A stretch of DNA of 64,000 bases from Candidatus Bipolaricaulota bacterium. Lineage in GTDB: Bacteria; Bipolaricaulota; Bipolaricaulia; UBA7950; UBA9294. Below are positions 378 to 62,107 of the stretch, one piece after another. The position numbers and the translations under genes were made by a program. The stretch's first letter is position 1, and every line of letters begins with the position of its first letter. Under the pieces are notes generated by a model. The model was not told the origin of the DNA. It made no database searches and saw only the letters and a program-made list of their open reading frames with translations. The stretch covers positions 2,580 through 66,579 of the forward strand of contig JBFMGK010000011.1 in the NCBI GenBank assembly GCA_040752575.1, in the 5' to 3' direction.

Positions 378-1262
378 ATGCTGAGCCGAGATGAGACCAA
401 AGCCATGGCGGCGATCCCGGTGGCTCTCGCGGTGGCTGCTGCGGTTGCCTGGGCAGGAAGCGCGGGAGGAAGAACGATTCTTGGGTTTCCTGTCTTTGCC
501 GTGCTCTTCGCCATGGCCTTTCTGATCCAGTGGGTGGTCTTCGTGCCGTCCTTCCTGCTTCGCAGCGAGCGCTTCTTCGACGTCACGGGGAGTCTGACGT
601 ACGTCTCGGTGATGGCTCTCGCGGTGGCGTGGAGTCCCCCCGTCGATGCGCGGTCCGCCCTGCTGCTGGCGCTGGTTGTCGTCTGGGCGGCAAGGCTTGG
701 GACGTTTCTCTTGCGCCGCGTGCGCCGCGCGGGCAAGGACGCGCGCTTCGACCAGATCAAAGGTTCCTTCTGGCGGCTCCTGCTGACCTGGACGCTCCAG
801 GGCCTCTGGGTGTCGCTGACGCTGGCTGCCGGGACGGCGGCGATCACGGCGGGGACGCGTCGGCCGCTAGGGATTCCGGAAGCCCTGGGCTTGGGGGTTT
901 GGCTGATCGGCTTCGGCCTGGAAGCATTGGCCGACGAACAGAAGCGCAGGTTCCAGTTGGTCTCTGCGAACCGGGGCGAGTTCATCCGAACCGGGCTGTG
1001 GGGGAGATCGCGTCATCCCAACTACCTGGGCGAGATCCTCCTCTGGACGGGCGTGGCCGCCATCTCCGCCCCCGTCCTGCGGGGATGGCAGTGGGTCACG
1101 ATGGTCTCTCCGGCCTTTGTCGCTCTTCTGCTGACGCGGATCAGCGGGATTCCCATTCTCGAGAAGCGCGCCGACAAGAAGTGGGGCGGGCGCGAGGATT
1201 ACGAGACCTACAAACGCAACACGCCCGTGCTCCTTCCTCGCCTCTGGAAGCGACAAGGCTAG
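378..1262 (+). CDS. DUF1295 / steroid 5-alpha-reductase-like membrane protein
   Basis: Multiple TM segments; motifs FFDVTGS, GKDARF, WTLQGLWV, EALADEQK, GLWGRSRHPNYLGEILLW. Confidence 0.85.
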   Translation: MLSRDETKAMAAIPVALAVAAAVAWAGSAGGRTILGFPVFAVLFAMAFLIQWVVFVPSFLLRSERFFDVTGSLTYVSVMALAVAWSPPVDARSALLLALVVVWAARLGTFLLRRVRRAGKDARFDQIKGSFWRLLLTWTLQGLWVSLTLAAGTAAITAGTRRPLGIPEALGLGVWLIGFGLEALADEQKRRFQLVSANRGEFIRTGLWGRSRHPNYLGEILLWTGVAAISAPVLRGWQWVTMVSPAFVALLLTRISGIPILEKRADKKWGGREDYETYKRNTPVLLPRLWKRQG

Positions 1263-13548: not shown

Positions 13549-13700
13549 GGGGTCAGATCTTCATTCTTGGTGTTCCTGCGGCTCCGTGATGAGTCTCAGG
13601 TGCCTCGGGCTCGGTCCTGCGTCACGACGGTGGGCGCGCGGCAAACCTTCCTCTTGGGCGAAGTCGCACTGCTGTCGGGTGGCGGGGGCGCGTCTTGCCT
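13549..13700 (+). repeat. Direct repeat copy 1 (152 bp), starting and ending in 26-bp GGGGTCA..TCTTG motifs
   Basis: 150/152 identical to 15382-15533. Confidence 0.95.
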
Positions 13701-15133: not shown

Positions 15134-15542
15134 GGAGTCAGAGTCGTTTCTTGCCCCTAGACGGCAGTGGGTCAAAACGAAGCTGGCGTTGACACCAGTG
15201 AGGTCGCGTGGTCAGATCTCAACTCTTTGCATCGCGCGGCACCTCGACAGGACGTCAAAGTGGCCGCGGGGTCAGATCTTCATTCTTGGTGTCTCTGCGG
15301 CTCCGTGATGAGTCTCAGGTGCCTCGGGCTCGGTCCTGCGTCACGACGGTGGGCGCGCGGCAAACCTTCCTCTTGGGCCACGGGGTCAGATCTTCATTCT
15401 TGGTGTTCCTGCGGCTCCGTGATGAGTCTCAGGTGCCTCGGGCTCGGTCCTGCGTCACGACGGTGGGCGCGCGGCAAACCTTCCTCTTGGGCGAAGTCGC
15501 ACTGCTGTCGGGTGGCGGGTTCGCGTCTTGCCTCTTGACGTT
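15134..15542 (+). repeat. Array of GGGGTCA-family motifs (about 15134, 15208, 15268, 15382, 15517) including repeat copies 2 (15268-15378) and 3 (15382-15533)
   Basis: Direct alignment; 114-bp tandem duplication; variable spacing 74/60/114/135 bp. Confidence 0.85.
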
Positions 15543-53528: not shown

Positions 53529-55388
53529 ATGAAGCGGAAAATGCTCGTGGTTCTGATCGTGACCGGTCTGCTGGCAGGTGCAGGAGGCGGCTCTTGCCCG
53601 CGCGCTGAACCGCCGCCCCTGCGGCCGCAGGCGGCGAACGGGGAGCCGGATGTCCCGCCAGCGATCGCGACGCGCGAGCCCGCCGCCGGCGCGACGATCA
53701 CCTTCGCCTACGGGTCGCCGGAGTCACAGGGTGTCGCTTCCGAGGCGCTGCAGGATCTGGCGGAGATCGTTCGCGGTTTCGTCGAGAACGACGGAATTGT
53801 CGGAGCGGAGCTTGTGGTGCTCAAGAACCGGTGCGTTCTGCTGCACGAATCCTTCGGCTGGAAGGATCGAGACGACGGACAGGCCATGGCGATCGACACG
53901 CTGTTCAACATTCGCTCCATGACCAAACCCGTGGTGGGCACGGCCGTCCAGATGCTCATCGACGACGGGCAGCTCGCGCCGGGCGATGCGGTGGCCAAGT
54001 ACTTGCCCTCGTTCGACAACGCGAGATCGCGAGCCATTACGATCGAGATGCTGCTCACCCATCGCAGCGGCCTGCCCATGAGTCTGATCGCGGCATCTTT
54101 CGGAGAATACACGAGCCTGCGCAGACTGGCCGATGCCGCGGGCGAGCGCGGCCCCGACTTCCAGCCGGGCAGCGCGTTCCAGTACAGCGACGCGGGGTTC
54201 GAAGTCCTCGGCGCGCTGGTCGAAGTCGTATCGGGCGTGCCCCTGCAGCAATTCGTCCAGCAACGCATCCTCGACCCCCTGGGCATGGCCGATACCATCA
54301 TGCTGCCCGAGCCCGACGATCCGCGCGTGGAACGCATGGCCAGCCTGTACTTCGGCGCCCGGGGTAGCTGGAGTCTGCTCTGGAGTCAGGATCGAGGTCC
54401 CCTCTATCCCTTTGCCATGGGCTCTCAGAGCCTCTACAGCACGCCGCTGGACTACGCCCGCTTCCTGACGCTGTGGATGGACTGCGGTGTGATTGGCGAT
54501 CGGCAACTCCTCTCGCCCGAGGCAACGCGCCGGGCTCTGACGCCGGTGTCGGACAGCAAGCTGTCCGGCGGCTTCCACGGCCTGCGGCTTGACTACGGCC
54601 AGGCGTGGATTGTCTATGTTCCTCAGGATGCGCCAGAAGGCGGGGGCGCGGTGGCGCTGTTCGGCCACAGCGGTTCCGATGGCACCTGGGCGTGGGCCTG
54701 GCCGGACCAGGACCTCCTCGTCCTGTACTTCACCCAATCGCGGGGCCAGGGCACCGGCACGATTCTGGAGTCCGAGGTGGACCGCCTGCTGATTCACCCT
54801 GGCCGGTACGAGGCGGAACTGCCGGCGGAGCTGGAACCGCTCTTGGGAACGTACACCGCCCTTTCCGGGCCCCTGATGTACCAGGAGTTCGAGATCGTCG
54901 CCCTCGATGGAGGATTGGCCGTCCGTCTCCCCGAGCAGGTCGTCGTGCCCCTTGAGGGTCCGGACCGCGCGGGCCGCTGGACCCTGGCTGTCGATCCTTC
55001 GTTGTCCGTCTCGTTTGTGCTCGACGAACAGGGAGATGCAACCCGAATGCATTGGCATCAGGCCGGCGAAGTCTTCGACCTGCCCCGGGGCGCCGCCCCC
55101 GAGGAACCGCCCCTCGACCGGGAAGCCGTGCAGAAGTACTTGGGCCGCTACAAGCGGCCGGAGGACGGCGCGACCATCGAAGTCGTCATCTACAACGGAC
55201 ACCTTGGCGTCGTATCGCCCGAGGTGTCTGCCGTGCTCGAGCTATTCCCGCCCAGCGAGGAGGGCGCGTGGCGCTTCCGACTGAACCCTGCTGTGTACAT
55301 CAGCTTTCAGGTGGGGGAGAACGGCGAGGTCGCGTCGTTCACGGCACATACGCCGGAGGGCGACTTCGTCCGGCCGAGAAGCGAGTAG
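53529..55388 (+). CDS. Secreted serine hydrolase (beta-lactamase/AmpC family) with two C-terminal beta domains
   Basis: FNIRSMTKP (SxxK), LLTHRSGL, FQYSDAGF, FGHSGSDG. Confidence 0.9.
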   Translation: MKRKMLVVLIVTGLLAGAGGGSCPRAEPPPLRPQAANGEPDVPPAIATREPAAGATITFAYGSPESQGVASEALQDLAEIVRGFVENDGIVGAELVVLKNRCVLLHESFGWKDRDDGQAMAIDTLFNIRSMTKPVVGTAVQMLIDDGQLAPGDAVAKYLPSFDNARSRAITIEMLLTHRSGLPMSLIAASFGEYTSLRRLADAAGERGPDFQPGSAFQYSDAGFEVLGALVEVVSGVPLQQFVQQRILDPLGMADTIMLPEPDDPRVERMASLYFGARGSWSLLWSQDRGPLYPFAMGSQSLYSTPLDYARFLTLWMDCGVIGDRQLLSPEATRRALTPVSDSKLSGGFHGLRLDYGQAWIVYVPQDAPEGGGAVALFGHSGSDGTWAWAWPDQDLLVLYFTQSRGQGTGTILESEVDRLLIHPGRYEAELPAELEPLLGTYTALSGPLMYQEFEIVALDGGLAVRLPEQVVVPLEGPDRAGRWTLAVDPSLSVSFVLDEQGDATRMHWHQAGEVFDLPRGAAPEEPPLDREAVQKYLGRYKRPEDGATIEVVIYNGHLGVVSPEVSAVLELFPPSEEGAWRFRLNPAVYISFQVGENGEVASFTAHTPEGDFVRPRSE

Positions 55389-55549
55389 GAGCGGCCGGGA
55401 GAGTGGCGTCACGCCCCCGGCGTGGGGGGATGTCCATGGGGCGTCTCGGTGCGTGAGACAGAGCCAGCCTCGCACGCCAGCAAAGCGGCTTCCCGTCGTC
55501 TTGAGGAGCGCCGAGCGCCGCTTGCTGACGTTTGGCCTGGAGCCTGAGA

Positions 55550-55642
55550 GCCGATCAGAGAACTCCGGTGGCCGTGGCAGAGTGGTAGTCATTGGCGGCG
55601 AACGGAACATCAAGAGGCAAGGGGTGACCCCACTGCCCGTGT
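55550..55642. repeat. Dispersed repeat copy A containing the 26-bp motif on the minus strand (55606-55631)
   Basis: Colinear, roughly 80% identical to 57055-57144. Confidence 0.85.
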
Positions 55643-55785
55643 ACCCCTGCGAATGCATTGCGACGTGCGTCTTGAGTTCCCTCAGTTCTCACGCCAAGAC
55701 GCTGGAGGCCTCACGGTGGTATCCTGGGAAGCGCGCATTGCGCAACACGGCGGAGGCGTTGTCGTGCCAGAGGAAGGAGTGCACC

Positions 55786-56976
55786 GTGGCGGCATTGCGG
55801 CGATTTGCGTGGATGGGGCCACTGATCGTGCTGGCGGCGAGCGCCATCGCATGTGGCCAGGTCACATCTTCTTCGCTGTTCGAGATGCTGGCGCGGGTGC
55901 CGCAGGCCGCGGTGCCCGCAAACAGCGTGTGGGCGGTCGCCCGCTACGCCAACTACGAGGCATTGTTCGCCGCCGAGGGTGCGACAGAGCTTCGGGATCT
56001 CGGAGACGTGGCACGGATGATGGAGTCCCTGCCGCTTGGCGCCATACTGAACCGCGTCGTCGCCGGTCCGGAAGCGATCAACTACCTCTCTTCGGGTACA
56101 GGGCAGATGCCCGACGTAGTTGGCTTCGAGTGGCTCGTGGATGTCGATAGCAGCCTCGAGTTCGGGGATCCGCCGGACCTCGGCTTGCTTCTGGGCGGCG
56201 ACTTCGACGCCGAGGCGATCGGACGAGCGCTACAGGGCCGCAACTTCGCCCTCGAGGAGATCCAGGGGGTTCCGGTCTGGCACCGGTTGGGGGATCGAGA
56301 GATCTCGCTCCAAGACCGCAATCCGGCCGATCCGTTTGGCGGTCACCTCGGAGCGGCGGCGCGCATCGCACTCCTTCCGAGGATGATCGCCAATGCCCGC
56401 AGTTGGCCGTTCATCGAGGCAATCCTTGCTGCGGGGACAGGCGAGCTGCCATCGTTGGCCGAGGACGTGGGCTACCGGGCGCTTGCCACAGCCGTCTCGG
56501 AGCCAGAAGGGATGCTCATCCAGGCGTTGCTGTTCACCGGCGCTTCGTTGCGTGTGACGGATGTCCCCGAGCTGTCCGGCGACCTAGCGCTTGAGCCGAT
56601 CGACGGACTGCCGTGGTACTCCCACGCCATCCTTGCCGATCGACAGGAGGGCGACGATCAGGTTCACCTCATCGGGCTGGTGTGCAGCGACAGGGTCACG
56701 GCGCAGACTGCCTCCTTCGTGCTGTCAGGGCGCTTGGAAGCCTTCCATCCGCCCGATCAGCCCGAGCAGGTGCTCGCCGAACGATACGGGGCGACGACCC
56801 GTGCTTCGGTCATCGAGTTCCCTGAGGACAACTTGGCCATCGCCCTGGTCGAGGTACGCTACCCCGTGCCCGCCGACCGCGACGACCCAGACACCGGCTT
56901 CTACGCCACGCTCGGCCCTCTGTTCCGCGCGTGGGTGAACGCAATCCTCCGGCGTGAGTTCAGCCCCCTCTGGTGA
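55786..56976 (+). CDS. Hypothetical secreted/lipoprotein
   Basis: AGGAAGGAG RBS, GTG start, hydrophobic leader ending AIACG. Confidence 0.7.
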   Translation: MAALRRFAWMGPLIVLAASAIACGQVTSSSLFEMLARVPQAAVPANSVWAVARYANYEALFAAEGATELRDLGDVARMMESLPLGAILNRVVAGPEAINYLSSGTGQMPDVVGFEWLVDVDSSLEFGDPPDLGLLLGGDFDAEAIGRALQGRNFALEEIQGVPVWHRLGDREISLQDRNPADPFGGHLGAAARIALLPRMIANARSWPFIEAILAAGTGELPSLAEDVGYRALATAVSEPEGMLIQALLFTGASLRVTDVPELSGDLALEPIDGLPWYSHAILADRQEGDDQVHLIGLVCSDRVTAQTASFVLSGRLEAFHPPDQPEQVLAERYGATTRASVIEFPEDNLAIALVEVRYPVPADRDDPDTGFYATLGPLFRAWVNAILRREFSPLW

Positions 56977-57054
56977 TTCGCGGGTGCGTTGGAGCTGCTC
57001 CGTCCCGTCGATGGGCGGAAGTGCTCCACGAGGGGATGGATCGTGGAACCTGGG

Positions 57055-57144
57055 GCCGATGAGAGAACTTGGGTAGCCGTGGCAGAGTGGTAGTCATCGG
57101 CGCCGAACGGAACGTCAAGACGCAAGAGCTGACCCCGTCGCCCG
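57055..57144. repeat. Dispersed repeat copy B containing the 26-bp motif on the minus strand (57111-57136)
   Basis: Direct repeat of 55550-55642. Confidence 0.85.
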
Positions 57145-57295
57145 AACGGGTTGGCAAGTTGCGCGGCGGCGACACACAAGCCACCCTCTTCACTCTTGTA
57201 GTAGCATGGGATGAGTGGGAAGTGAGGCGTTCTCTTCCGTTGGCTTCGGCGAATACAAGAGAGATCGTGGGAGATACGTAGAGGAGGAAAGACTG

Positions 57296-58402
57296 ATGGT
57301 GTCAAAGGCTAGACTGCTCGCTCCCGGTGTTGTTCTGCTGGTGATCCTCGTTGTCTCCTCGAGCAGCGTCAGGTGCGAAACAGGTTCAGCCTCTGCCAAC
57401 CCATCTGACTGCCCGTTCCAAGAGCTCTACGATCAAGGGGTGGATCGCTATCTTGGTGTATTCGTGCCAACAGCCACGGAACTCCTCATGGGAAACGTTG
57501 TCAAGCACGAATTCGTCGGCGGTGACGGGCCCCTTTGCTTCACTGGCAACGAGTTCTCGATGTACACGAGAGATGGTGAGAGCGAGGAACTCATGATCTT
57601 CCTGCAGGGTGGCGGTGCCTGCGGACCGACATCTTGCGAAGCTGTCGATTTCCCCTTGCCGATTGTCAGCCTGGGCATTCTCGATCCCAGAAACGCGGCA
57701 AACCCTGCGGCGAACTTCGACCTGGGCTACACACCCTATTGCGACGGAACGCTGTTCAGTGGCGACAAGGAAGTCGATAGCAATGGAGACGGAAACATCG
57801 ATCGATTCTTCCGCGGAATTCAGAACCTCTCGGCCGCACTAGACGTTATCGCCAGCACCTATCCCGCCCCAAGCAGAATCCTCCTAGTCGGCAATAGCGC
57901 AGGCGGGTTCGGCGTCCATTACGCCTTGCCGCTTGTTCGGAAGCTGTACCCGGAGGTGCCGATCGACCTTGTCAATGACTCCGGAGTCGGCATCCAACAA
58001 CCTGGTGTGCAGGAGAGCCTGATTGACTATTGGAACTCCGGTGGCTTCTTCCCGGCAAGCTGCAGTCGTTGCATCGGCGACGATGGCAATCTCACCGACT
58101 ACTACAAGTACCAACTCGCCGAAGACGAGAACGTCCGAATGGGCTTCATCAGCTCCACGCGTGACGAAGTGGTGACTGGACGAACGATGATCGACGGTGC
58201 CGAGTTTGAAGCGCAGCTTATCGCGGCAATGGCCGAGCTCGAACAGGCATACCCCGACCGCTTCCGCAGCCTGATTTCCGACACGGCGGAGCATACCTTC
58301 GTCATCAAGCAGTTTGGGTTCGCTGTCGCCGACACCACCGTCCTGCAGTGGATCACGGATATGCTAAGTCAAAGCGGTGATTGGGTGTCCGCCAGCGACT
58401 GA
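57296..58402 (+). CDS. Secreted pectinacetylesterase-family hydrolase
   Basis: IFLQGGGAC, PYCDGTLFSGD, GNSAGG nucleophile elbow, NDSG; GAGGAGG RBS. Confidence 0.85.
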   Translation: MVSKARLLAPGVVLLVILVVSSSSVRCETGSASANPSDCPFQELYDQGVDRYLGVFVPTATELLMGNVVKHEFVGGDGPLCFTGNEFSMYTRDGESEELMIFLQGGGACGPTSCEAVDFPLPIVSLGILDPRNAANPAANFDLGYTPYCDGTLFSGDKEVDSNGDGNIDRFFRGIQNLSAALDVIASTYPAPSRILLVGNSAGGFGVHYALPLVRKLYPEVPIDLVNDSGVGIQQPGVQESLIDYWNSGGFFPASCSRCIGDDGNLTDYYKYQLAEDENVRMGFISSTRDEVVTGRTMIDGAEFEAQLIAAMAELEQAYPDRFRSLISDTAEHTFVIKQFGFAVADTTVLQWITDMLSQSGDWVSASD

Positions 58403-58564
58403 TCCACCATTCGGCATGAAGAGCCTGCACGCTTGCCTGGCCACAGCATCCAGTCACGATTCACCGGGAGCCGACTCATCTGCGTTTAGAGCCTAGGAGA
58501 CCCGAGCGAAGGCTCCCGCCTTCATAGGTCCTAGAGAGCGTTAGGGAATCGCGCACCAGAAAGA

Positions 58565-59518
58565 AGGGTCAGGTCTTCCTATCACGCATTCCTTCTTCTC
58601 CGTATCACACCTTCCTGTGCGCGCACGCGGCGGCTGATGGTCGAGTAGTGAATGCGAAGATGCGCGGCGATCTCCTGCTGGGTGTAGCGGTGTTCGAGGT
58701 ACGCGCGGGCAATCCCGGCAGCGTCATCGGGGTTGGAGACGATGGCGATGAGTGCAGGCCGCCCGGCGACAAGCTGATCCCGGGGGATCTCTGAGAAGGC
58801 CGTTCGCGGGGGCGTGTGCTCCTCGATGAACGCGTCGCTCCCCAGATAGACTTGCCCGCGCAGGTTCTCCCACACCGTGACCCCGCGGCCTTGTGATACG
58901 AACTTCCGGTACGCCTTCTGCGCTCTGGCCCTCGATGCGCCGAACTGGTCAAGGATCCAGTCGGTCGTTAGGAACTCGGGTGTGGCCTCGAAACCGGCCG
59001 TGGCGCGATAGCTTGACCATGGCCAGTCCCGCGCGGAGCGGACCATCCGAGCTCGAACCGGATTCAGGACCACGTAGCGGGCGAGCTCAAGGAGGTACGG
59101 ATCCCGCTCCACGAGGACTCCCTTGAAGCGCCCCTGGAAGACGTGGCCCGTTCTTCGGTGCCTGCGGTTGAACTCCTGGGTGTACACGCCATTCAGCTGT
59201 CGCATCCCGAGAGACAGGGTGGGCTCAAGCGTCTCGATCAGGAGGTGATATGTGGTTGGCGACGCTGCGCGTCGCTAGGGGCGAACTGCGTTCGCCTTGA
59301 CGTTCTGGCAATACGCATGGCACTGCCAAGTGAACCGTTCGACGACCTCCGTGAGCAGCTCGAGGAACATCTCTCGGTCGGGGTCGGTGAAGAAGATCTT
59401 CTCGCGCGCATTGCCGCGACAAGTCACATGGTAGACAGCTCCGGGGTACTCAATTCTCAGAGGACGAGCCATATGCCCAGCATAGCCCTTTCGGTGCTTG
59501 ATAGGAAGACCTGACCCT
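58565..59518 (-). mobile_element. RAYT (TnpA-REP, Y1 HUH) element bounded by perfect 20-bp inverted repeats
   Basis: AGGGTCAGGTCTTCCTATCA at 58565-58584 and its reverse complement at 59499-59518. Confidence 0.85.
58582..59472 (-). pseudogene. RAYT transposase with C-terminal HTH, interrupted at the HUH motif
   Basis: MARPLRIEYPGAVYHVTCRGN...CHAYC, in-frame TAG 59277-59275, YHLLIET..GMRQLNGVYTQEFNRRH.R.GHVFQGRFK...NPVRA...WPWSSY. Confidence 0.92.
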
Positions 59519-59549
59519 ACGCCCTGACCCTACGCCCTGACCCTACGCC
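59511..59549. repeat. Tandem repeat (CTGACCCTACGCC)x3
   Basis: Three exact 13-bp units overlapping the RAYT upstream inverted repeat. Confidence 0.95.
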
Positions 59550-59752
59550 CCGGGTCCCACTCAAGTCGGACAGTGAGGTCCTCGTCTCCGGCCGTGATCG
59601 GCACGAGTCGCATGGGGCACCTCCACTCCCTGGACGCGTTCGGACAGCCGGGTAGCACATCGACGGCACGGGCTGCTCGGCTGTTGCCAGGAGCATGACC
59701 CGCCGCCGCTGTGCGTCGAGCGTCGCGGGAGTCCGTGTACGAAGGCGCAACG

Positions 59753-60703
59753 CTATGGTCGTGGCGGGCCGATGTGCCATTCGCTCATTCGGGCGTACTC
59801 GACGCAGCCCTGTCTGGCGAAGAGGCGCATCATCGCCCCATTCGTCTCGCTCGTTCCGTCATGATAGGTCGTACCTCCGAGCGCGCGCAGCGTTGCAATC
59901 CCATGTCGGTGCACCGGAAGGCCGAGGCCACGCCCGCGATGCGTGGGAACGATGCCGATGAACGCAATCGTCGACCAGCCGTCCTCGGGCGTCGCCAGGC
60001 AGAAGAGAATCGCCACCGGCTCAGCCCCCAAGTAGCCGATCTGGATCGCACGCGGGTCTAGGTCTTCGTAGCGCGCCCCGAGGGTGTTCTCGATGGCGGA
60101 AGAGCCCACGCTGGTGTCGACGGCGTCCGGAGAGTCGATGCTCGCTACGCGAAGGAGATGGAGCACGAGGTCCTCGCCTGTCTCAACCATCGTCCTCCAA
60201 ACGAGATCCGAGGTGTCCTCCAGGGCCATCTGATCGAGCGGCGTCTTGTACTCGACTCTGCGAGTGACCCGCCCGAACCCCGCATCGAGTAGGGCGGCTT
60301 CGTAGTCAGGCGTCATCTGATCATCGTGCACGCGCGTGCCAAGGTCGCGAATGCCCATCTCCCCCGCTCGTCGGCGTGCCTGCATCAGGAGCCGCGTGAT
60401 ACTCCCCCGCGTGCCGTACCCGTCGCGGCCTCGCCACGGCATGAGCACGGCCTCGTCGGGTCCGCGGCGAAACAGACGAAGGCTGCCCGTCACGTGGAGT
60501 CCGTCAGGGCCGATCTCGACGAAGACATCGGCGAGATCGAGGTCGCCGGTCTCGACTCGGCGAGTCATCCGCTCCAGGACGGCGGAAGGCTCGTCGCCCT
60601 GGAGCGAGGCGAGTAGCTCGGCGTATGCCTCAAGATGTGAAGGGTCAAGACGCATGGCCCGGGCTGTGCATGAGCCGGGCTGCGGTCTGTCGGCTTGTGT
60701 CAT
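59753..60703 (-). CDS. GNAT family N-acetyltransferase (tandem GNAT)
   Basis: IAFIGIVPTHRGRGLG, TSETNGAMMRLFARQG; GAGGAG RBS. Confidence 0.85.
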   Translation of the reverse strand: MTQADRPQPGSCTARAMRLDPSHLEAYAELLASLQGDEPSAVLERMTRRVETGDLDLADVFVEIGPDGLHVTGSLRLFRRGPDEAVLMPWRGRDGYGTRGSITRLLMQARRRAGEMGIRDLGTRVHDDQMTPDYEAALLDAGFGRVTRRVEYKTPLDQMALEDTSDLVWRTMVETGEDLVLHLLRVASIDSPDAVDTSVGSSAIENTLGARYEDLDPRAIQIGYLGAEPVAILFCLATPEDGWSTIAFIGIVPTHRGRGLGLPVHRHGIATLRALGGTTYHDGTSETNGAMMRLFARQGCVEYARMSEWHIGPPRP

Positions 60704-61126
60704 GAAGTCTCCTCTTCTGCGTGCGGTGTGATTCGCGCGCGACAGACGTGCCCCGAATGGGGCAGGATTGGGATGCCGCGCACCGGTCTTGCGGGAGGAG
60801 CGACCCAGGCAACGGAGAAATCCGTGGCGCTCTAGAAGAGGCTCGATGCTCGCGTGGCGAGGGTAGCTTCCGGCTCTGGAATGGGTTTTCTGGCTGTTAA
60901 CATCGCTACCCTCCTTTCTCTCTCAGGCTCCGTACAACGATGGCAGCCGTTGGAGAACGCATCGGATGGGGCCAGTATAGAGACGTGCCGATGCCGGCGC
61001 AAGGGGCGTCCACAAAGTAGGCCGAGCTGGCGGGGACTGGATCCGACCGGCGCGGAGGGCCATGATGGGCCTCGTGGGTTTCCATCGAGCGGCAAGGGCT
61101 GGGAGGCAACTCGTGAGGTGCGAAGA

Positions 61127-62107
61127 ATGAGGAAGGACAGGACGCCGGCGGCAGCGGCGATGAATGCGGTTGTCTGCCGCAGGTATGGACCGCCCGAAGT
61201 CTTGCAGCTCGCGAAGGTCGCGAAGCCGTTTCCTAGACCTGACGAAGTGCGCGTACGCATCCATGCAAGCGCCGTCACAGCAAGCGACATCTTCATCCGA
61301 TCGGCGCGCGTGACGCCCGCGTTCCAGATTCCATTCCGCCTGATGATGGGGATCACCAAACCACGGCATCCTGTTGTCGGGTTTGTCTTCTCTGGCGTTG
61401 TGGATGAAGTGGGCGCGAGGATTGAGCGGTTCAAGCCGGGGGATGAGGTGTATGGAACGACAGGATTTCGCCTCGGCGCCTACGCGGAGTACCGATGCAT
61501 GAGAGAAGCGGACTCACGTCAGCACGGTTGCCTGGCGCTCAAGCCCGAGAACGTCACACACGAGGAGGCAACTGCGGCCGCATACGGCGGGTTGCTAGCA
61601 CTTCAGTATGTCGAGAAGGGGAACATCCAGGCCGGCGACAAGGTCCTCATCTACGGAGCGTCGGGGACGTCCGGCACGATCGCTGTGCAATACGCAAAAC
61701 ACCTCGGCGCGATCGTAACGGGCGTGTGCAGCACGACGAACATCGACTTCGTGAAGTCGCTTGGCGCAGATCAGGTGATCGACTACACACGGACGGATGC
61801 GCCGCCGGAGGGTGCCCGTTACGACTTCGTGCTCGATTCCGTCGGTGGCATCAAGACGTCGAGGCTGAAGAAGGCGTGCAAGGAAGCGGTTGCGCCAGGA
61901 GGGAAGTACGTCTCGATTGACGACGGCGATCTAGAGCTGAGCTCCAAACGGATGGCGCGACTCAAGGAACTTGTCGAAGCTGGGACGATCACGCCGGTTC
62001 TTGGGCGCACGTATTCGCTTAGCGACGTCGTTGAAGCCCATCGCTTCGTCGAAGGCGGGCACAAACGTGGCGGTGTGGCGGTGACAATTCCGCATGCGGA
62101 AGACTGA
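61127..62107 (+). CDS. NAD(P)-dependent MDR-family oxidoreductase (quinone reductase/ADH-like)
   Basis: YGPPEVL, VRIHASAVTASD, GAYAEY, VLIYGASGTSG, VKSLGADQVIDYT, GHKRGGV; start 61127 or 61160. Confidence 0.92.
   Translation: MRKDRTPAAAAMNAVVCRRYGPPEVLQLAKVAKPFPRPDEVRVRIHASAVTASDIFIRSARVTPAFQIPFRLMMGITKPRHPVVGFVFSGVVDEVGARIERFKPGDEVYGTTGFRLGAYAEYRCMREADSRQHGCLALKPENVTHEEATAAAYGGLLALQYVEKGNIQAGDKVLIYGASGTSGTIAVQYAKHLGAIVTGVCSTTNIDFVKSLGADQVIDYTRTDAPPEGARYDFVLDSVGGIKTSRLKKACKEAVAPGGKYVSIDDGDLELSSKRMARLKELVEAGTITPVLGRTYSLSDVVEAHRFVEGGHKRGGVAVTIPHAED

Follow-up and report, generated by a model that had tools for sequence, protein, structure and literature searches.

A tyrosine transposase gene between non-hairpin inverted repeats in a Bipolaricaulota genome is very probably a TIRtron and carries a recurrent two-hairpin insert

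Introduction

What kind of element is a lone tyrosine transposase gene that is enclosed by an inverted repeat rather than by hairpins? The question is raised by a 64,000-nucleotide (nt) stretch of a Candidatus Bipolaricaulota genome, hereafter the window, in which a gene resembling those of REP-associated tyrosine transposases (RAYTs; REP, repetitive extragenic palindrome) lies on the minus strand between the two arms of such a repeat. The window comprises positions 2580-66579 of contig C11 in a 2.16-Mb draft (G000; 78 contigs, 66% G+C), and the closest named protein relatives of this genome belong to metagenome-assembled genomes of Candidatus Bipolaricaulis. An initial annotation had proposed that a RAYT subtype with a C-terminal helix-turn-helix (HTH) domain recognizes non-palindromic inverted ends, perhaps through that domain. 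RAYT-like genes flanked by terminal inverted repeats (TIRs) were named TIRYTs, and the corresponding units TIRtrons, by Di Nocera, De Gregorio & Rocco in 2013 (BMC Genomics 14:522, PMC3733652), and Quentin, Siguier, Chandler & Fichant placed most TIRYT genes in TnpA-Y1 subclass 2.1 in 2018 (BMC Genomics 19:475, PMC6006769); the inverted repeat at our locus is therefore a re-discovery and opens no new category. We conclude with considerable confidence that the element is a TIRtron, that is, one TIRYT gene bounded by conserved TIRs that form no hairpin. What we did not expect is that a conserved cassette of two hairpins inactivates the HUH motif of many copies that are unrelated to one another.

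Results

An inverted repeat encloses a single reading frame

A repeat search of the window returned an inverted pair with arms of 24 nt at 58565-58588 and 59495-59518, 906 nt apart and 96% complementary, with one mismatch. The exact 20-mer that it contains, AGGGTCAGGTCTTCCTATCA, occurs at two sites in the window only (58565-58584 on the plus strand and 59499-59518 on the minus strand), and 100 dinucleotide-preserving shuffles of the window yielded no match to it, even at up to three mismatches. A single minus-strand reading frame, 59472..58582, lies between the arms. Relative to this frame, the 3' (right-end) TIR at 58565..58588 (minus strand) holds the TGA stop codon (58584-58582) and has its outer tip at 58565, 17 nt past the stop. 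The 5' (left-end) TIR at 59495..59518 (minus strand) has its outer tip at 59518, 46 nt before the A of the ATG (59472); measured from the inner end of its exact part (59499), this distance falls to 27 nt. The initial annotation had described an exact 20-bp pair around the RAYT gene alone, with the stop codon in one arm and the other arm ending 27 nt before the ATG; this pair is real and its coordinates agree with ours, and the repeat extends beyond that description to 24 nt with one mismatch. Folded as single-stranded DNA (ssDNA), the arms performed no better than shuffled sequence, with z scores of +0.4 to +0.6 on three strands and -0.27 on the fourth. Since the arms lack an ssDNA fold of their own, calling the inverted ends non-palindromic was correct.

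The window TIR starts AGGGTCAGGTCTTC, and the family TIR consensus is GGGGTCAGGTCTTG. At the position of the tip motif GGGGWSAS the window reads AGGGTCAG, with one mismatch at position 1; its paralogues and most homologues start GGGGTCAG or GGGGTCAA.

The gene encodes a disrupted RAYT-like protein with a C-terminal HTH

Read through, the enclosed TIRYT gene (58582..59472, minus strand) is a single frame of 296 codons. Codon 66 is a TAG, the residues T-T-Y-H replace the N-H-Y-H of the HUH motif, and the open reading frame (ORF) listing splits it into ORFs of 65 and 207 amino acids (aa). On the read-through translation, the NCBIfam model NF047646 ("REP-associated tyrosine transposase") matches residues 75-153 only, past the HUH position. 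Further along, the C-terminal HTH (58609..58716, minus strand; read-through residues 253-288) is matched by Pfam HTH_23, with E values of 2e-5 to 3e-5, and by HTH_28; in the 207-aa ORF these models score 24.6 bits (at the cut-off of 24.6) and 22.6 bits, respectively. Two residues of its ...HYSTISR... stretch, T264 and S266, are invariant among 30 relatives, and relatives carry a precomputed PF13384 annotation. The presumed catalytic tyrosine, within ARYVVLNPV, is encoded at 59074..59076 (minus strand) and corresponds to residue 133 of the read-through and to Y119 of intact relatives. It is invariant in alignments of relatives and lies 57-59 residues after the HUH motif, adjoining the published median HUH-to-Tyr spacing of 58-67 (PMC6006769), and it is thus the probable catalytic residue.

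Two intact relatives, P0123 and P0124, are 282 aa long, carry the motif QMTNH[YF]H and share 94% aa identity with the window's 207-aa ORF. A fold search with a predicted model of P0123 (predicted local distance difference test score, pLDDT, 69) returned as its best match 4er8_A, the E. coli RAYT bound to a REP hairpin (E 2e-6; template-modelling score 0.66 on the target), followed by the TnpA structures of ISDra2 and IS608; a PDB sequence search with the same protein gave no match at E <= 0.1. The window's own genome contains an intact paralogue of 287 aa at positions 25923-26783 of contig C46 (Pfam Y1_Tnp, 4e-11; NF047646, REP_Tyr_transpos, 91 bits against a cut-off of 80), together with a frameshifted copy (C27), an internally deleted copy (C27b), a copy with an N-terminal insertion (C73) and fragments. 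Pfam, NCBIfam and fold matches therefore agree on a RAYT-type Y1/HUH protein with a C-terminal HTH, as first annotated. The accompanying assumption that the gene is intact does not hold, because an in-frame TAG at 59277-59275 lies within a two-hairpin insert that destroys the HUH motif.

The ends are conserved together with the protein subtype

The TIRs recur around related genes in the same genome and beyond. The C46 paralogue and the deleted C27b copy are flanked by GGGGTCAGATCTTCA and TGAAGATCTGACCCC, a 26-nt inverted pair flanks the C27 paralogue, and C73 carries the family TIRs too. Among six loci from related genomes (within L003-L010), four have the TIR at both ends, and in the other two, L007 and L009, it is confined to the 5' end. 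We extended the comparison to one genome per species, which gave 80 loci, 72 of them usable, from Bipolaricaulota, Nitrospirota, Desulfobacterota, Acidobacteriota, Beta- and Gammaproteobacteria and others. The best inverted repeat in the flanks of the usable loci had a median score of 17, versus 7 in displaced control windows. A strict core, GGTCA[AG][AG]TCTT, for which the background was 20 matches in 471 kb, was present within 150 nt upstream of the gene in 56 of the 72 loci; 47 loci had an inverted copy at the 3' end, and 42 had the core on both sides.

Placement of the ends proved similarly constrained. The distance from tip to ATG is 45-49 nt in 38 of the 56 loci with an upstream core, and its commonest value, 46 nt (18/56), is that of the window. 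The 3' tip falls between -15 and +45 relative to the stop, mostly at +4, +12, +19 or +24 (window, +17). TIR positions 1-14 are almost invariant across homologues (GGGGTCAGGTCTTG), and positions 15-26 of the two arms are 70% identical within an element versus 39% between elements. Conservation of the TIR core is a trait of the protein subtype, not the outcome of two accidental REP insertions. Because the core recurs on both sides of the gene, and at nearly constant distances from it, in the paralogues and in 42 of the 72 loci, the initial proposal passes the comparison of homologue flanks on which it had been made to depend: the repeats are neither generally missing from homologues nor variably spaced from the gene.

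No GTAG-tagged REP was found at the flanks of the element; the genome's GTAG-REPs form a family of their own and lie elsewhere. Genome-wide, the 14-mer TIR core had 204 matches at up to three mismatches, which is chance level (200-247 in shuffles); clearly related TIR copies number about two dozen.

Near-identical copies in metagenomes end at the TIR tips

We compared the region 58400-59700 of the window with Logan contigs from four metagenomes (X1-X4), which contain copies with about 3% differences. Similarity begins at 58565/58566 and ends at 59511-59524, with unrelated sequence past both sides. JGI/ENA contigs with the P0123 and P0124 genes likewise show blastn similarity from window position 59524 to 58566. 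Copies on the X1-X4 contigs and on the JGI/ENA contigs L091, L096 and L111 are 94-97% identical to the window element, the copies occur in at least five different flank contexts (window, L091/X4, X1, X2 and X3), and metagenome contigs match the intact L111 and L091 sequences exactly around the HUH codons. Because the similarity of near-identical copies ends at, or within 6 nt of, the tips, and because their flanks differ, the TIR-to-TIR segment appears to move as a block. This is the best evidence here that the TIR-bounded segment of about 0.95 kb is the unit that moves or is transferred.

The neighbours of the window element are a pectin-acetylesterase-like gene and a GNAT-like gene, and no other transposase gene lies inside or adjoins it. 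An Rfam search of 55000-62000 returned nothing at E <= 0.1. At the L091/L092 loci, an IS3-type gene pair (HTH_Tnp_1, HTH_21; positions 1017-1672) is found directly upstream of the TIRtron that encodes P0123, with an NB-ARC gene beyond; L096 has a different left flank, beginning exactly at GGGCGAT plus the TIR.

Tip duplications and promoter-like geometry

Two further features of the left end bear on how it might function. At the window tip, three tandem 13-nt units of GGGCGTAGGGTCA occupy 59510..59550 (minus strand), each consisting of 6 nt of outside flank and the first 7 nt of the TIR (AGGGTCA). The C46 paralogue has two 12-nt tandem units at its tip, and at a single locus represented in two samples L093 has two 15-nt units and L091 one; the tip array is thus polymorphic. 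Across the family, 13 of 110 ends carry a perfect tandem duplication across the tip, and in 9 of these 13 the duplicated TIR part stops after position 6-9. The recurrent break suggests a cut near GGGGTCA^G, and these duplications of flank plus TIR tip (its first 6-9 nt) may indicate where cleavage occurs in vivo.

The second feature is promoter-like geometry at 59479..59507 (minus strand). A -35 element, TTCCTA (59507-59502), occupies TIR positions 12-17 and is followed by a 17-nt spacer, a -10 element, TATGCT (59484-59479), and, after another 6 nt, the ATG. The 18 homologues whose spacing is also 46 nt conserve TTG (positions 12-14) and TAnnnT (positions 35-40), with 6 nt between the latter and the ATG. 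T12-T13-G14 of the TIR would accordingly begin a -35-like hexamer, and the geometry is that expected of a leaderless-type transcript, pointing to a putative promoter function.

A model for TIRYT action and its alternatives

These features fit a model in which the TIRYT enzyme would act on the TIR tips, cutting near GGGGTCA^G, and the invariant HTH helix would bind the invariant TIR core and, by occupying the left end, would also repress the gene's own promoter.

Several observations count against this picture of a mobile unit. The initial annotation had suggested looking for empty sites and target duplications, and neither was found: comparison of the 3.5-kb neighbourhood DNA with 30 relatives defined no empty site and no target-site duplication. 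Empty sites were lacking because the relatives have only the GNAT-like neighbour gene in common. Proteins identical to P0138 and to P0034 are encoded on 13 contigs each, in one constant context across many samples, with no sign of recent transposition; movement must therefore be rare, and the genes are more like resident genes than active insertion sequences (ISs). Several Bipolaricaulia copies also share 6-7 nt outside the 5' tip (GGGCGAT or GGGCGT), so the true left boundary may lie slightly beyond the TIR. A promoter role alone could explain part of the conservation of the 5' TIR. Tip cleavage and HTH-TIR binding are predictions from sequence, and we know of no bench biochemistry for any TIRYT.

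Some of the same observations would suit a different view, which we consider unlikely, in which the inverted repeats are regulatory operators and the gene is a resident (domesticated) nuclease instead of a mobile unit. The HTH on the left copy, over the -35, would then provide autoregulation, and the right copy would serve in looping or in blocking read-in. The left TIR does hold the conserved TTG of the -35 at a fixed 46-nt geometry, identical proteins do occur at one locus across many samples, and RAYTs generally behave as single-copy host genes (PMC5581495). Operators would not, however, account for retention of the same core at the 3' end, where a promoter is not needed, or for the loss of similarity at the tips among copies that are 94-97% identical and lie in different contexts. 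Nor would they account for internally deleted derivatives that retain both ends (C27b and a remnant of about 85 nt on C43), or for solo and clustered TIR copies dispersed in the genome. An operator role is compatible with a TIRtron if it is a second role of the left end.

Two other origins for the ends appear far more remote. The dispersal of solo and clustered TIR-like copies elsewhere in the window and genome might be taken to mean that the arms are independent REP-like insertions that bracket the gene by chance. This is very hard to reconcile with arm positions that are near-constant relative to ATG and stop across phyla, with the absence of hairpins in the arms and with the co-variation of inner arm sequence within elements. 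Tn3-type inverted repeats also begin GGGG. The ends might on that account belong to another transposase acting in trans, for instance a Tn3-type DDE enzyme, but the GGGG(T)C start is all that they have in common, no other transposase gene lies within or beside the unit, and the TIR core accompanies the Y1-HTH protein from phylum to phylum; we give this explanation almost no weight.

A two-hairpin cassette disrupts the HUH motif of the window gene

The lesion in the window gene is a two-hairpin cassette at 59251..59303 (minus strand), in which 53 nt stand in place of 11 nt (TGACGAACCAC) and which thereby adds 42 nt on balance; on the plus strand, L111 and the metagenome copies read GTGGTTCGTCA where the window has the 53 nt. 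Alignment with intact relatives places the 14 extra codons between CHAYCQ and YHLLIET. The cassette is predicted to fold into two 7-bp hairpins, at 59259-59275 and 59280-59296 (free energy -16.2 kcal/mol, z -4.5). CTAG between the hairpins supplies the in-frame TAG (59277-59275), and where the HUH motif has Asn-His, the frame encodes Thr-Thr. Because the cassette removes the first metal-binding His and adds a TAG, the window copy cannot make a HUH-competent protein. It is at best a non-autonomous element with good ends, or a source of an N-terminal stub plus an HTH-bearing fragment from an internal start. Based on substitutions relative to L111 and L091, dN/dS (the ratio of nonsynonymous to synonymous substitution rates) is about 0.29 on the window lineage versus 0.08-0.12 on intact lineages; selection on the window copy appears relaxed, but the gene does not appear to have been neutral for long. 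No deletion of cassette sequence regenerates ...QMTNHYH..., since 11 resident nt are replaced and mostly one extra nt follows AACCAC; restoration of HUH by contiguous excision or by a simple ribosome hop was rejected on this basis.

We could not assign the cassette to a repeat family of its own genome. Neither hairpin recurs in G000 at up to two mismatches, excluding a dispersed repeat, and the sequence differs from that of the genome's GTAG-REP family. This family, GTAGCGTCGCAG-CTTGT-CTGCGACG, has about 25-29 copies by 14-mer count (e.g., C7:12987-13030), and by the same count a CRISPR-type repeat, GTGGTCCCCACACCCGTGGGGATGAACCG, has about 21. The cassette is alike in style to 120-nt modules on C50 and C27 and to tRNA-Gln-linked hairpin modules, with no alignable similarity to either. 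The 120-nt modules (C50:3438-3557 and C27:43917-44033) are 83% identical and contain several short hairpins with compensating stem changes. Both adjoin TIRtron remnants, a C-terminal HTH fragment on C50 and solo TIR-like sites on C27.

The cassette recurs at the same codons of other TIRYT genes

We searched 184 genomes for a 23-mer from the cassette, AGGCGAACGCAGTTCGCCCCTAG, at up to two mismatches, and found it in four other genomes of the phylum, three with an exact copy and one with a copy that has a single mismatch; a control pattern gave 0 matches. The 23-mer is also present in 14 metagenome contigs. Apart from the window, 12 distinct contexts are TIRYT genes with the cassette at the same codons, giving 13 carriers, in all of which the 23-mer is exact or altered at one position. 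Their sources are at least five genomes, which represent two genera, and nine metagenome contexts with G+C contents of 54-64%. The layout is shared: ...CHAY, 13 variable nt, hairpin 1, CCTAG, hairpin 2, CC, AA[CT]CA[CT], usually one extra nt, and TAYCAY. In every carrier the cassette is bordered by ...CHAY and (N)H-Y-H-LLIET and contributes an in-frame TAG. Coding DNA on either side differs strongly from carrier to carrier; within hairpin 2, one compensated pair is A-U in 10 carriers and G-C in 3, and the loop is variable. The window, L116 and L124 have no other lesion, and the remaining carriers have further stops, frameshifts or deletions.

To place these genes relative to one another, we used a maximum-likelihood tree of 40 family members that includes the five placeable carriers. 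The tree needs five changes, at least four of which are forced by well-supported branches. Four of the five placed carriers pair directly with a cassette-free gene, and the fifth, L124, falls just outside a clade of carrier L116 and four cassette-free genes. Since the carriers are scattered on the gene tree, the cassette has been acquired repeatedly. In the pair L121/L012, 95% identical on both sides of the cassette, 53 nt stand for 12 nt, and the exchanged segment includes the 13 nt left of hairpin 1.

How the cassette spreads is a question on which we are more guarded. Read on either strand it is 5'-CTAG followed by a 7-bp hairpin, like head-to-head sites of a REP-type nuclease. We tentatively propose, at a little under even confidence, that it is a tiny TIRYT-specific insert that spreads among TIRYT genes and switches off the nuclease. 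It may be an "off switch" favoured by the host, or a parasite of a parasite, that gene conversion carries from paralogue to paralogue across the family's two most conserved DNA stretches, those flanking the cassette. Repeated acquisition may reflect such conversion or an active site-specific process. Another possibility is that the cassette is a site where a Y1 enzyme itself inserts or removes DNA. Should mobility or conversion account for its spread, the cassette would be an inactivating insert of unusually small size, specific to one gene family, and would suggest recurrent pressure to silence TIRYT nuclease genes.

One occurrence of the exact 23-mer lies outside any TIRYT gene. In contig L130 (Ga0209755_10244188; 1114-1136, minus strand) it is enclosed within a larger inverted repeat, GGCTGTCTCAAA...TTTGAGACAGCC, and the surroundings are unrelated intergenic DNA, rich in A+T, upstream of a YebC-like gene; for a collection of this size, a rough estimate makes an exact match by chance unlikely.

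Possible TIR relics and a second Y1 family

The window and its genome contain further sequences resembling TIRYT gene ends. Three units of about 114 nt, two of them in tandem, lie on the plus strand at 13549-13680, 15268-15380 and 15382-15500 and start with the TIR core GGGGTCAGATCTTCATTCTTGGTG. In reverse complement they resemble the 3' end of TIRYT genes of the C46/L011 type, and tblastn detected no coding remnant in them. Two repeats of about 100 nt on the minus strand (55600-55631 and 57105-57136) start GGGGTCA(G/C)C(T/C)CTTGC(G/C)TCTTGA(C/T)GTTCCGTTC and seem to have arisen by decay from the 5' end, TIR and promoter included, of the C73-type paralogue, with the ATG changed to ACG in the 57136 copy; one such decayed end sits just upstream of the esterase-like gene at 57215. 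On C43 (59900-60040), a remnant of about 85 nt keeps a good TIR on the right (TGAAGATCTGACCCC) and a degenerate one on the left, and about 40 nt past this remnant lies a solo 3'-type TIR in the opposite orientation. The C43 sequences look like relics resembling miniature inverted-repeat transposable elements.

A second, distant Y1 gene occurs at C8:7250-8200 (218 aa; NF047646, 49 bits, below the cut-off). On each side it has two inverted copies of a 22-nt repeat, ATTCCGGGGACATAGTACT, of which the genome holds about 18 copies; this arrangement is REPtron-like and represents another family.

Discussion

For us, the main interest of this locus lies in the cassette and in the leads that it offers toward a first biochemical test of the TIRYT family. 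Handles for such work include a 14-nt end shared across phyla, the promoter-like geometry of the left end and a candidate cleavage point after GGGGTCA, and intact close relatives suited to expression are available in P0123, P0124 and the C46 paralogue.

A full-text search of a paper collection listed no paper that deals, in its title or abstract, with an insert like the cassette. Yeast mitochondria contain mobile GC clusters and "byp" elements, which are small GC-rich hairpin inserts comparable to the cassette. Intragenic REPs (Di Nocera 2013) offer another parallel. The cassette resembles these inserts in being short, GC-rich and palindromic and in lying in an ORF whose downstream frame it keeps. 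Unlike such inserts, it is limited to one codon position of one gene family, brings a stop codon and destroys a catalytic motif, and no HUH-restoring bypass or excision can be derived for it.

Among systems with a related nuclease, the REPtron of E. coli YafM (4er8; PMC3479197, PMC3333891, PMC8266576) has the same nuclease fold, inverted cognate copies and a low copy number. REPs, however, are hairpins with a GTAG tag and number tens to hundreds of copies, whereas window-type arms are unfolded and few, and E. coli-type RAYTs lack the HTH tail of the window family. The ends of the window element are thus not GTAG-tagged palindromes from an abundant dispersed family. IS200/IS605 elements (IS608, ISDra2) share Y1 HUH chemistry on ssDNA and a similar fold. 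They differ in having asymmetric ends with subterminal hairpins and no TIRs, in inserting 3' of a 4-5-nt target and in lacking the HTH tail; the window ends are symmetric and hairpin-free.

The closest counterpart is the TIRtron. According to the passages of PMC3733652 on which we draw, TIRtrons combine a RAYT-like gene with TIRs instead of REP hairpins, many of the TIRs carry GGGGWSAS, their distances to the gene are similar from one to the next, the 3' TIR can overlap the end of the gene, and in some genomes TIR copies also occur solo, in dimers or in clusters. The window element has a RAYT-like Y1 protein, of which it is a broken member, TIRs, the tip motif and constant spacing; it differs from the TIRtrons in those passages in being inactivated and in extending the group to a new host phylum, Bipolaricaulota. 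To that description we would add a core of about 14 nt (GGGGTCAGGTCTTG), a fixed 46-nt spacing with a putative left-end promoter and recurrent tip duplications, none of which we found stated in the same passages. The domain architecture and TIR motif further suggest that the window gene belongs to TnpA-Y1 subclass 2.1 (PMC6006769), which its authors equate with the TIRYTs and which is marked by a C-terminal HTH_23, HTH_28 or Bac_DnaA_C domain and by the absence of REPs. It shares with that subclass the HUH/Y core and the C-terminal HTH extension, here matched by HTH_23 and HTH_28, and has no REPs nearby. Quentin et al. noted that the TIR motif is unlike a DnaA box and left open whether the HTH reads the TIR. 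The initial proposal of a RAYT-HTH subtype with non-palindromic inverted ends is borne out insofar as the ends are conserved in the subtype, and falls short as a novelty because the idea had already been published as the TIRYT/TIRtron; recognition of the ends by this subtype is likewise a published hypothesis, one that our homologue survey partly supports.

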